Assembly: GCA_044223505.1 (NCBI GenBank)
Contig: JBGALX010000012.1
Location: 26,174-90,173, forward strand
Direction of reading: 5' to 3'
Source of the DNA: Myxococcaceae bacterium
GTDB lineage: Bacteria; Myxococcota; Myxococcia; Myxococcales; Myxococcaceae
Length of the DNA stretch: 64,000 bases
The translations under genes and the position numbers were made by a program. This document shows positions 55,742 through 57,568 of the stretch, one piece after another. The notes below the pieces were generated by a model that saw only the letters and a program-made list of their open reading frames with translations, was not told the origin of the DNA and did no database searches. Position 1 is the stretch's first letter. Each line of letters starts with the position of its first letter.

Positions 55742-57568
55742 TCAGCCGGCGTCTTTGGCCGCGGGCGGCGCGGGGGCGGCCGGGCCTTCGGGGCCGAGGT
55801 CGACGTGGCTCAGGTCATCGTCCTTCGCGAACTCGCGGGCGAGGCGCGAGACCGAGCTCGGGTCGATCTTCGGCATCAGCACGAGAAAGGCGGCCTTCGT
55901 GCGCGCCTGCAGCTTCGCGTCGCCGAGGCGCTCGTAGCAGGTGAACAGCGCGAGGTGCACCTCGGGGTCGAACGGGTTCACGGCGAGCGCGTCGAGGTAC
56001 GCGTCGCGCGCCTTCGTCCAGTCGTTCTTGCGCAGCAGAATTCTGCCGAGGTGCACGCTGGTCGGGCCCGAGCCCGGGTGCATCGTGAGCGAGCCGCGCA
56101 GCACCTTCTCGGCCTCGTCGAAGCGCTTGAGCTCGAGCAGCGTGAGCGCGTACTTGTTCGAGATGCTCTCGTAGCGGTCTTTGACCACGTTCCACGCGAG
56201 CTGGAAGTGCTCGGCGGCGGCCTTGGCGCGGTTGTGCTCGCGCATCAGCTCGCCGAGGTGGGCCCAGCGGCGGGCGTCGACCTCTTCGACCTCTTTGAAG
56301 TCGCCGAACGAGACGTCCTTCTTCTTCTTCTTCTCGTCCTTCTTCTCGGCGCCGTCGCCGCCGACGAGCTCTTCCTTGCGCTCTTTCTGCGAGCGGGGAA
56401 TGAGCTCTTTGGGGAAGGGCTGCTTCTTCACGTGCGCGAGCCACGCCTTCTCGAACTGGGGGAAGGGCGCCTTGAACACGAACGCGACCGAGCGCTGGTC
56501 GCTCTCGCCGCCGGCCATCTGCTGGAGCAGCTCTTTGAGGCCCTTGCTGCCCTCTCTCTGAAAGAGCAGGTCGATGGCGAAGTAGACCTCGGCGAACGCG
56601 GTGGCGGCGTCTTCGGCGGTGGGGAGCAGCGCCATCGACGGGTGCATCTTCTCGAACGGCACGAGCGTGTTGCTGCGCACGCGCGAGCCGAGCAGGGCGA
56701 GCGTCGAGGGCGTCATCGCGGCGCCGTACGGGCCGCGCCAGCGCGACTCGAGGTACTTCGCGAGGCCCTCGTGCAGCCAGATGGGCACGGTGTTCCGGCT
56801 GACGTTGCTGACCGCGTAGTGCACGTACTCGTGCGAGACGGTGTCGAGCCAGTCGTAGCCGTGCACGAGCGCCTTCGGGCTCGTCACCATCAGCTTGTTG
56901 AACTTGCAGATGGCGATGGTGCCGGTGTCTTGAATCTGCTTCTTCGTGAGCGTCGAGACCTGCGAGAGCTCGCGGGCGTTCGAGACGATCTCGATGCGCA
57001 CCTTGCCCTTCGGCTTGAAGCCGAGGTCGGCCTCCATCGCCTTCGCCATCGACTCGAGCCCGTCGAGCGCCCACGGAGCCAGCACGGCGTCTTTGCCGGG
57101 CGGGTACATGAAGATGAAGTGATCGCTCTCTTGCTTCTCGTACTTCTCGGTGATGCGCGCGGTGTCTTTGACGAGCCTGAGCCACGAGCCGGGCTTGTCG
57201 CGCACGCCGGCGCCCTCGAGCTCCTTGATGGCCTCGGCGTAGCGGCCCTCTTCGAAGAGCAGCCGCCCGCGGAAGTAGCGCACCGGCTCGGTGTCTTTCG
57301 GAGCGACCTTCTCGGCCGCCTCGAGCTCGCGCCGCGCGCCCTCGATGTCCCAGTCGCTCAGGCTCTGCTCGACGTTCTGCAGCCGCGCCTTCGCCTCGCC
57401 TTTGAGCTGCGACGCTTCTTCGAGGTCTTCTTCGTCGCCGCTCGCCGCGAAGGCAGGCAGGGAGCTCAGGGAGGCGAATACCAGCAAGGGACAGGCAACT
57501 TTTCCGAACGCCCGCCGCAGCGAACGTCTCGGCCTGCGCTCGGAAAAGTAGCCTGTCCCTTTCCTCAC
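55742..57568 (-). CDS. TPR-repeat protein with HExxH zinc-metallopeptidase motif
   Basis: Signal peptide, the motifs SHEYVHYAVS and HEGLAKY, and TPR-like segments at both ends. The first 28 codons lie inside a large hairpin element. Confidence 0.6.
   Translation of the reverse strand: MRKGTGYFSERRPRRSLRRAFGKVACPLLVFASLSSLPAFAASGDEEDLEEASQLKGEAKARLQNVEQSLSDWDIEGARRELEAAEKVAPKDTEPVRYFRGRLLFEEGRYAEAIKELEGAGVRDKPGSWLRLVKDTARITEKYEKQESDHFIFMYPPGKDAVLAPWALDGLESMAKAMEADLGFKPKGKVRIEIVSNARELSQVSTLTKKQIQDTGTIAICKFNKLMVTSPKALVHGYDWLDTVSHEYVHYAVSNVSRNTVPIWLHEGLAKYLESRWRGPYGAAMTPSTLALLGSRVRSNTLVPFEKMHPSMALLPTAEDAATAFAEVYFAIDLLFQREGSKGLKELLQQMAGGESDQRSVAFVFKAPFPQFEKAWLAHVKKQPFPKELIPRSQKERKEELVGGDGAEKKDEKKKKKDVSFGDFKEVEEVDARRWAHLGELMREHNRAKAAAEHFQLAWNVVKDRYESISNKYALTLLELKRFDEAEKVLRGSLTMHPGSGPTSVHLGRILLRKNDWTKARDAYLDALAVNPFDPEVHLALFTCYERLGDAKLQARTKAAFLVLMPKIDPSSVSRLAREFAKDDDLSHVDLGPEGPAAPAPPAAKDAG
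57485..57566. repeat. Inverted repeat (23-nt arms) sharing the GGGACAGGCTACTTTT core with the 3.5-kb hairpin
   Basis: agggacaggcaacttttccgaacg ... cgctcggaaaagtagcctgtccc. Confidence 0.7.

Follow-up and report, generated by a model that had tools for sequence, protein, structure and literature searches.

How can translation begin on a gene whose first codons are folded into a long and stable hairpin? The question is raised by a 64-kb stretch of DNA (64,000 nucleotides, called the window here) from a Myxococcaceae bacterium, with a GC content of about 71% and proteins that match metagenome-assembled genomes (MAGs) of Myxococcota (Myxococcaceae, Archangiaceae). On the minus strand of the window a gene for a 608 amino acid protein (55742..57568), defined by its open reading frame (ORF) and by matches to TPR and Peptidase_MA_2 (HExxH) domains and referred to as the peptidase gene, lies directly 3' of a DUF4175 gene encoding 1063 amino acids (57565..60756), and a palindrome covers its first codons. 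We put a probability of roughly 0.72 on the explanation that this palindrome is an old, in-frame and tolerated repeat doublet in the n-region of the signal peptide, read through via coupled initiation. The doublet resembles REPINs, inverted pairs of repetitive extragenic palindromic (REP) units, and would be of the kind associated with tyrosine transposases with flanking terminal inverted repeats (TIRYTs), or Group 1 of the RAYTs (tyrosine transposases associated with REPs).

A stable hairpin covers the first codons of the peptidase gene

An inverted-repeat search of the window returned 68 inverted pairs, the second longest of which has its arms at 57486-57517 and 57530-57561 (32 nt, 88% complementary). 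Repeat search and RNA folding together defined the feature as a palindromic, REPIN-like repeat doublet (57486..57561, minus strand). On the minus-strand mRNA the 5' arm (57536-57561) pairs with the 3' arm (57486-57511) in a main helix of about 25 bp, built from 11 and 14 bp with a single U.U interruption, and a small apical helix forms within the region between them (57512-57535). The arm cores are GGGACAGGCTACTTTT and GGGACAGGCAACTTTT. Folding of 98 nt gave a minimum free energy of -56.6 kcal/mol as compared to -33.2 +/- 3.3 kcal/mol for 200 dinucleotide shuffles (z = -7.1), none of which (0/200) was as stable, and folding of 121 nt gave -68.8 kcal/mol (z = -6.5). An earlier reading of the same DNA made from the letters alone (the sequence-only reading) had placed a large hairpin with 23-nt arms over codons 2-28. 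This was borne out, with the helix measured over codons 3-28 as numbered from GTG 57568. These codons are translated in frame, without stops, as KGTGYFSERRPRRSLRRAFGKVACPL.

The start codon is shared with hairpin-free orthologues

Initiation at GTG 57568-57566 places the peptidase start on the DUF4175 stop (TGA 57567-57565), so that the two genes overlap in the four letters GTGA (57565..57568, minus strand). A Shine-Dalgarno-like GAGGAG (57577..57582, minus strand) lies 8 nt 5' of the GTG within the last DUF4175 codons (YYEELVK and stop), and the peptidase N-terminus read from this GTG is MRKGTGYFSERRPRRSLRRAFGKVACPLLVFASLSS. The order DUF4175-peptidase is the same in three orthologous loci (L001, L004 and L173), and a start/stop overlap was present at 9/9 orthologous junctions, hairpin-bearing or hairpin-free. 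It measures 4 nt in the window, L001, L002/L003, L004, L173, L174 and the locus of protein P0009, and 1 nt in L175 and the P0007 locus. Junction DNA was read at seven loci (all but the P0007 and P0009 loci), and wherever it was read the 4-nt overlap was GTGA. In these seven (7/7) the upstream protein ends in YYEELV(K/R), and GAGGAG is identical across all orthologous junctions shown, both empty (L001, L174) and filled (window, L173, L002/3, L004). Because the empty-site orthologues start at GTGA, comparison of the sequences indicates that GTG 57568 is the ancestral peptidase start, which puts the palindrome within the reading frame, behind codon 2.

The palindrome could instead be intergenic, acting as a terminator or mRNA stabiliser after the DUF4175 gene, with the peptidase starting at an in-frame TTG directly 3' of the window stem (57485..57487, minus strand) and the open frame through the hairpin being accidental. 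Such a position would be usual for this repeat family, which is mostly found just after stop codons, and a second copy in the window (copy A, described below) has full terminator anatomy; the NCBI annotation of the L173 orthologue also starts downstream. However, a start at TTG 57487 would yield MLVFASLSSLPAFA, in which a charged n-region is missing. An in-frame ATG, GTG or TTG between the hairpin and the signal-peptidase site is found in the window but not in L173, L002 or L004, so a downstream start is no general solution, and in all of these loci the frame is open from GTGA. Indels inside the element preserve the frame overall, the U-tract after the window stem is degraded and the empty-site orthologues use exactly the GTGA start. 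We rejected the TTG as a start and consider the intergenic reading very improbable. The sequence-only reading had regarded GTG 57568 as the only in-frame start giving a proper signal peptide. The start itself was correct, but it is not the only candidate as TTG 57487-57485 also precedes the hydrophobic core. Its proposal of a non-canonical start is not needed, given the conserved GTGA.

The NCBI annotation of the 90% identical L173 orthologue (P0003, 534 aa) begins at a downstream ATG and is without a signal peptide. At L173 9791-10001 (GCA_016793725.1, JAEUJP010000439.1) this leaves a 207-nt annotation 'gap', yet the frame is open from the conserved GTGA, and the start was probably mis-called because of the repeat. 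The repeat probably misleads gene callers (608 aa here versus 534 aa in the related NCBI MAG), and recognising the element fixes the start.

The repeat is translated as part of the signal peptide

Comparison of the translation with the empty-site orthologue defined a signal peptide of residues 1-41 (57446..57568, minus strand). The n-region comprises residues 1-27 with a net charge of about +8, and about 25 of its residues derive from the repeat (KGTGYFSERRPRRSLRRAFGKVACP); the h-region runs from L28 to A41 (LLVFASLSSLPAFA). The signal-peptidase site likely falls between AFA and AS, as judged from the translation and without a dedicated prediction tool. At the empty sites (L001, L174) the gene begins GTG AGG CGC GCG CTG and encodes VRRALLPLLALLALPAFA followed by ADEEDLEE, a short classical signal peptide, and more distant peptidase orthologues have short signal peptides as well. 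The start codon and the conserved KGEAKA motif are 165, 171, 174, 153 and 165 nt apart where the site is filled or decayed, and 90 and 87 nt apart where it is empty; each of these distances is a multiple of 3. Arm 1 of L173 carries an in-frame tandem duplication of 15 nt (GTGYL/GSGYF).

Two other export signals were considered and rejected. A twin-arginine translocation (Tat) signal peptide (S/T-R-R-x-F-L-K) did not fit, as the window reads SLRRAFGK, the homologous L173 insert reads PQRAFGK and the element-free orthologues have short, Sec-type peptides. A lipobox at KVAC was dismissed on inspection, its Cys preceding the hydrophobic core.

Two orthologous loci showed further changes in this region. 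L002 (2720-2760), and L003 with it, carries a second tandem 3'-arm unit (GCCTGTCCCCTTTTCTC GCCTGTCCCCTTTTTCT) after the hairpin, in frame, which adds LACPLF. In L174 (411-470) an in-frame TAG interrupts the signal peptide (VRRATWLMLGLLALPALA and stop). The contig has a coverage of 3.4x, and either the TAG was introduced by faulty sequencing or the gene is a pseudogene.

The hairpin is a copy of a dispersed repeat

The arms of the peptidase-start hairpin carry the core GGGACAGGC(W)ACTTTT, which is also found at window 3457-3578. The 16-mer GGGACAGGCWACTTTT has four matches in the window, with 0.2 expected by chance, and these are both arms of two palindromes (57488-57559 and 3476-3559). The second palindrome, copy A (3457..3578, not assigned to a strand), is the longest inverted repeat in the window, with 44-nt arms that are 98% complementary, the core GGGGACAGGCTACTTTTTTGCGCAAC and a fold of -97 kcal/mol (z = -13.5). 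The core is common to the two copies, and the inner stem and loop are different. Two convergent genes run towards copy A, which includes the stop codon of each: TGA 3464-3466 belongs to a DUF1501-like ORF, and 3569-3571 ends ORF 3569..4423. A6 and T6 tracts flank its 44-bp stem on both strands. With these tracts copy A has the anatomy of a bidirectional terminator, and it appears to supply or overlap both gene ends.

We scanned 185,579 species genomes, one genome per species, for the pattern GGGACAGGC-N40-70-GCCTGTCCC. Among the matches listed nearly all were extended palindromes, and the core was present in many phyla. Each arm in these matches has the form X-core-X', where X and X' are complementary and lineage-specific. 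The exact 16-mer GGGACAGGCTACTTTT recurs, again among the matches listed, in genomes labelled Nitrospiria, Desulfoscipio (an isolate), Bipolaricaulota, Planctomycetaceae and Myxococcaceae. The related MAG GCA_016793725.1 has repeat copies on at least four contigs (L010, L036, L038, L173), and some of its copies, for example L036, have arms nearly identical to those of window copy A. In the Myxococcota loci and one MAG labelled delta proteobacterium, repeat copies adjoin stop codons, several within about 30 nt, and lie mostly between convergent genes. These positions were taken from ORFs filtered by GC content at third codon positions (GC3), as a cruder ORF-spanning test was too noisy in GC-rich DNA. 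The peptidase-start copy likewise begins 3 nt past the DUF4175 stop, and it comes to lie within a gene only because this stop overlaps the peptidase start.

The count of the 9-mer pattern is not in itself special, as in a viral-contig control the real 9-mer palindrome pattern gave 21 matches against 70 and 41 for composition-matched controls. What speaks for a repeat family is that the 16-mer is shared, that the palindromes are extended and that the repeat flanks transposase genes. Neither the window nor any of 17 related loci matched an Rfam 15 family at the gathering score, with only generic microRNA-precursor hairpin families below threshold, and the 9-mer and 12-mer strings of the repeat returned only unrelated primer matches in the full-text literature. 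Integron attC sites and FtsK orienting polar sequences (KOPS, GGGNAGGG) were considered and dropped as poor fits. A sigma-54 promoter was dropped as well, as only copy A has the GG-N10-GC spacing, and there it faces the loop. Both copy A arms (3476-3500 and 3535-3559) have this spacing (GGCTACTTTTTTGC), both pointing loopward, which we treated as coincidence.

Several further occurrences of the core were seen. Window 44846-44854 holds a lone exact GCCTGTCCC that has neither A/T tracts nor a second arm to form a palindrome; at this composition chance would supply about two 9-mers of this kind, and this one is probably not a member of the family. Clusters of three to four hairpin doublets with the family core (GGCGAGGGACAGGCCCTCGCC) occur at L011 5876-6282, L092 3354-5105 and L111 7277-7584. 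The doublets of L011 and L111 lie within about 400 bp, and in L092 two are adjacent with the third about 1.6 kb away. L011 is from the Candidatus Poribacteria chromosome OZ251518.1, which contributed many loci to the matches listed and seems to hold a large repeat population. Tandem arrays of a 17-nt unit (GGGGACAGGC plus 7 nt) were found at L065 2241-2319, L110 3995-4073, L069 4645-4706 and L089 5362-5423 (L065 and L069 are labelled Acidobacteriota); these arrays flip orientation midway, giving multi-unit hairpins.

Related repeats flank Y1-transposase genes in other phyla

When E. coli RayT was compared by phmmer with every ORF of the collected loci, a single one matched, L012:1066-1782. This ORF and L074:5052-5729 both match Pfam Y1_Tnp, and their best NCBIfam match, below the equivalog cut-off, is REP_Tyr_transpos (REP-associated tyrosine transposase). 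The two proteins (223-230 aa; motifs NHVH, WQ, and YVELNP or YVERNP) are 46% identical, though their genomes are labelled Acidobacteriota and Planctomycetota. Both genes are bracketed by GGGACAGGC units (L074 4970-5855; L012 970-1800), and the flanks in L074 are two full doublets with mutually reverse-complementary spacers. Three further homologues from other lineages (L309, L310, L311) have flanking inverted units with the cores GGGACAGCC, GGGACTGGC and GGGACAGTC. The core or a one- to two-base variant of it thus flanks the Y1-transposase gene in 5/5 loci examined. The transposase family has at least 7720 relatives at E <= 1e-10, and PF01797 was found in all 120 listed. Many of the homologues (P0121-P0240) lie on contigs of about 1 kb, as expected if flanking repeats break short-read assemblies. 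An all-against-all comparison of ORFs around 115 repeat copies showed no recurrent neighbour gene except the transposase pair; the remaining clusters were common families (response regulators, ABC ATPases and kinases).

Gain, loss and decay of the element at one site

A neighbour-joining tree of the peptidase grouped all orthologues with the element or a remnant in one clade (P0001-P0011, of which P0008 and P0011 had cut-off N-termini; L174 was not placed on the tree). The palindrome is absent in L001 (91% protein identity) and in L174 (87%), which share the GTGA junction. In the tree the empty L001 is sister to the window and the filled L173 lies outside both, and DNA identity was 92.6% between the window and L001, 91.1% between the window and L173 and 89.1% between L001 and L173. 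Between the window and L173 the insert is homologous from end to end, the inner arms being 96% and the loops 67% identical. The hairpin has lost strength in L173 (z = -1.8), and in L175 it has decayed (z = 0). The sequence GTTGCC is common to the window, L173 and L002 at a place where the family consensus is GTAGCC, an argument for common descent. In the simplest history a single old insertion was followed by precise removal in the L001 line, weakening in L173 and decay in L175. When the window, L002 and L004 were compared the core arms were 86-95% identical, the inner arms 50-68% and the loops 32-44%. Metagenome relatives of the junction were only distant (<=63% identity) and uninformative for it.

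A signal-peptide n-region directly behind an overlapping stop and start can take in a mobile palindrome of 75 nt and keep it as species diverge. With dated states (intact, weakened, decayed and excised) at one orthologous site, the locus is useful for measuring repeat persistence and decay.

Effect on initiation and termination

The most probable course of events would be that a head-to-head doublet landed 3 nt past the DUF4175 stop and thereby inside the peptidase ORF after codon 2. Being in frame, it lengthens the positively charged n-region by about 25 residues, in a region that is expected to accept almost any sequence and to be removed on export. The 4-nt overlap and the internal Shine-Dalgarno sequence predate the insertion. 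Translation would then start at GTG 57568, most likely by termination-reinitiation after the DUF4175 gene, with the ribosome that terminates on DUF4175 already sitting on the start codon and the first base pairs of the stem opened. From its footprint a terminating ribosome should open the first few stem base pairs. Reinitiation would need no free 30S docking, and a -57 kcal/mol helix beginning at +8 could be tolerated because the coupled ribosome reinitiates.

The computed cost of opening positions -15..+13 was 23.3 kcal/mol in the window, 21.2 in L002, 28.4 in L004 and 19.5 in L173, all with the element, as compared to 14.6 kcal/mol at each of two clean empty sites and 9.9 in the decayed L175. 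The helix begins at +8 in the window and at +4 in L002, and in L004 the GTG itself is inside it. The sequence-only reading had proposed that the structure could occlude the ribosome as a form of translational control. Its first half is consistent with a hairpin over the first codons and a raised cost of opening the docking site. The second half is not supported, as the hairpin is a copy of a dispersed repeat that has been cleanly lost in the closest relative, weakened in L173 and decayed in L175 with the gene arrangement unchanged, which argues against an indispensable control element.

A dedicated or exapted role in control is nevertheless possible. The hairpin would block independent 30S binding, and the peptidase would be made only when DUF4175 is translated, in a fixed ratio to it, or only when the helix melts; as a co-opted enforcer of coupling, the palindrome would fix the output ratio by being opened only by a ribosome terminating on DUF4175. 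If so, it perhaps also terminates untranslated transcripts, and selection would keep the stem by compensatory changes while the loop drifts. The position of the helix fits this, as does docking-site opening that is about 5-14 kcal/mol costlier than at clean empty sites.

The state of the stem fits it as well, and is among the observations that weigh against a tolerated passenger of TIRYT kind. Stem pairing is kept in the four orthologous copies, with 88.8% of cells paired versus 47-59% in slid controls, and five stem pairs have changed on both sides among these four while the loop is near-random. Kept pairing around a randomised loop could mean selection for a hairpin at this locus, which a neutral passenger does not need. 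No transposase gene of the L012/L074 family was found in the window or in the Myxococcota loci examined, and for this organism the connection to TIRYTs is suggested by the sequence family of the repeat; mobilisation of the element by a TIRYT in this genome would follow from that kinship. Subclass 2.1 of the TnpA-Y1 transposases, which comprises the TIRYTs, was scored as 'no REP' by Quentin et al. (2018; PMC6006769), and abundant dispersed copies for this subclass are documented only by Di Nocera et al. (2013) and by the pattern-scan matches listed here.

Equally, the pairing pattern could reflect arms that corrected each other, or different members of the family that inserted independently at a hot spot, and with only four sequences these are not separable from selection. 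Four sequences are also too few for firm covariation, and palindrome arms can self-correct without selection. The control role is further opposed by the occurrence of the same element family in unrelated, mostly intergenic contexts, by the missing element at the same GTGA junction in L001 (the closest relative) and L174, and by the states of L173 (z = -1.8) and L175 (z = 0). We consider it unlikely, and a tolerated doublet read through by coupled initiation is preferred.

Termination was considered as well. After the window stem the tail UUGCUGGU has a degraded U-tract (4 U in 8 nt), and the peptidase-start hairpin has the stem but not the U-rich tract of an intrinsic terminator; copy A has both features on both strands (CCCCUUUUUU). 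A consensus terminator scan found nothing at the hairpin, though its loop limit of 3-8 nt makes it blind to loops this long. The U-tract is better kept in L002 and L004, where CCCCUUUUCUC and CCCCUUUUCAUC follow a stem of about 30 bp, and judging from these tails some attenuation may occur at the hairpin. Read more broadly, the element would be an intragenic attenuator whose residual terminator activity stops transcription before the body of the peptidase gene when translation of the junction lags, resulting in polarity. These kept tails and the A6/T6 tracts of copy A agree with such a role, but the window tail does not, and the scan was silent within the limit just given. We consider an attenuator improbable.

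Comparison with known systems

The closest likeness is to the TIRYTs and TIRtrons of Di Nocera et al. (2013), tyrosine transposases with flanking terminal inverted repeats that have the common motif GGGGWSAS and whose repeats form moderately abundant families in some genomes, as dimers or clusters (PMC3733652). In the classification of Quentin et al. their inverted repeats share GGGG[AT][CG]A[CG]; subclass 2.1 corresponds to RAYT Group 1 of Bertels, has the motifs NHVH, W[EQ] and YIELNP and a median length of 238 aa, and is prevalent in delta-proteobacteria among others (PMC6006769). The L012 and L074 proteins are in keeping with this description of subclass 2.1. According to Bertels et al. 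(2017; PMC5581495), no other RAYT group is spread as widely across taxa as Group 1. The repeat described here resembles these systems in several respects. Its sequence GGGGACAG fits GGGGWSAS, with 8/8 positions in the copy A arms and 7/8 on both sides in the peptidase-start arms (AGGGACAG); its units are single, in inverted dimers that form hairpins or in clusters, with a very wide taxonomic spread; in other lineages the same core flanks Y1-transposase genes with NHVH, WQ and YVELNP encoding about 225-230 aa; and sibling copies are mostly extragenic and 3' of ORFs. It differs in forming long, stable hairpin doublets with A/T tracts that are seemingly numerous in some genomes (Poribacteria and the Myxococcaceae MAG).

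REPINs and their RAYTs in Pseudomonas fluorescens and E. coli (Bertels and Rainey 2011; PMC3116915) share with this repeat the two inverted palindromic units with a spacer, the dispersed and mostly extragenic distribution, a transposase gene flanked by the same doublets (L074) and orthologous copies that outlast speciation. Here the RAYT group is a different one, and the conserved part is a 9-nt core whose register within the local hairpin varies between phyla. The repeat is also distinct from canonical GTAG-tagged REPs (RAYT Groups 2/3), as the tag is not at the foot of the hairpin and, though common, is not found in every copy. In copy A and on one peptidase-start arm (GTAGCCTGTCCC) GTAG is next to the core; on the other arm GTTG takes its place, and in many members of the family GGTG, GGGG or GTCG does.

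Insertion into a reading frame is a kind of event already known. In-frame intragenic REPs have been documented, as have REP ends that supply stop codons (PMC3733652, PMC6006769). Rickettsia palindromic elements (reviewed in PMC3733652) are similar only in their mode of insertion, in frame at a permissive place with the ORF left intact. At the present locus that place is the n-region of a cleaved signal peptide directly behind a coupled start, instead of a loop on the surface of the mature protein.

Translational coupling between genes with an overlapping stop and start and a structure-masked start is established. The peptidase junction has the features of such systems, a 4-nt overlap, a Shine-Dalgarno sequence inside the upstream gene and a stable helix at the start that a terminating ribosome could open. 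The difference is that the helix here is a secondarily acquired copy of a mobile element and that element-free relatives already use the coupled junction. As to the element itself, the link between the GGGACAGGC core and Y1-transposases across the labelled phyla lends support to the TIRYT/TIRtron observation of 2013, which has been little studied, and broadens it. It also points to dispersed hairpin repeats as a feature of RAYT Group 1 (subclass 2.1) in many lineages from soil and sediment.

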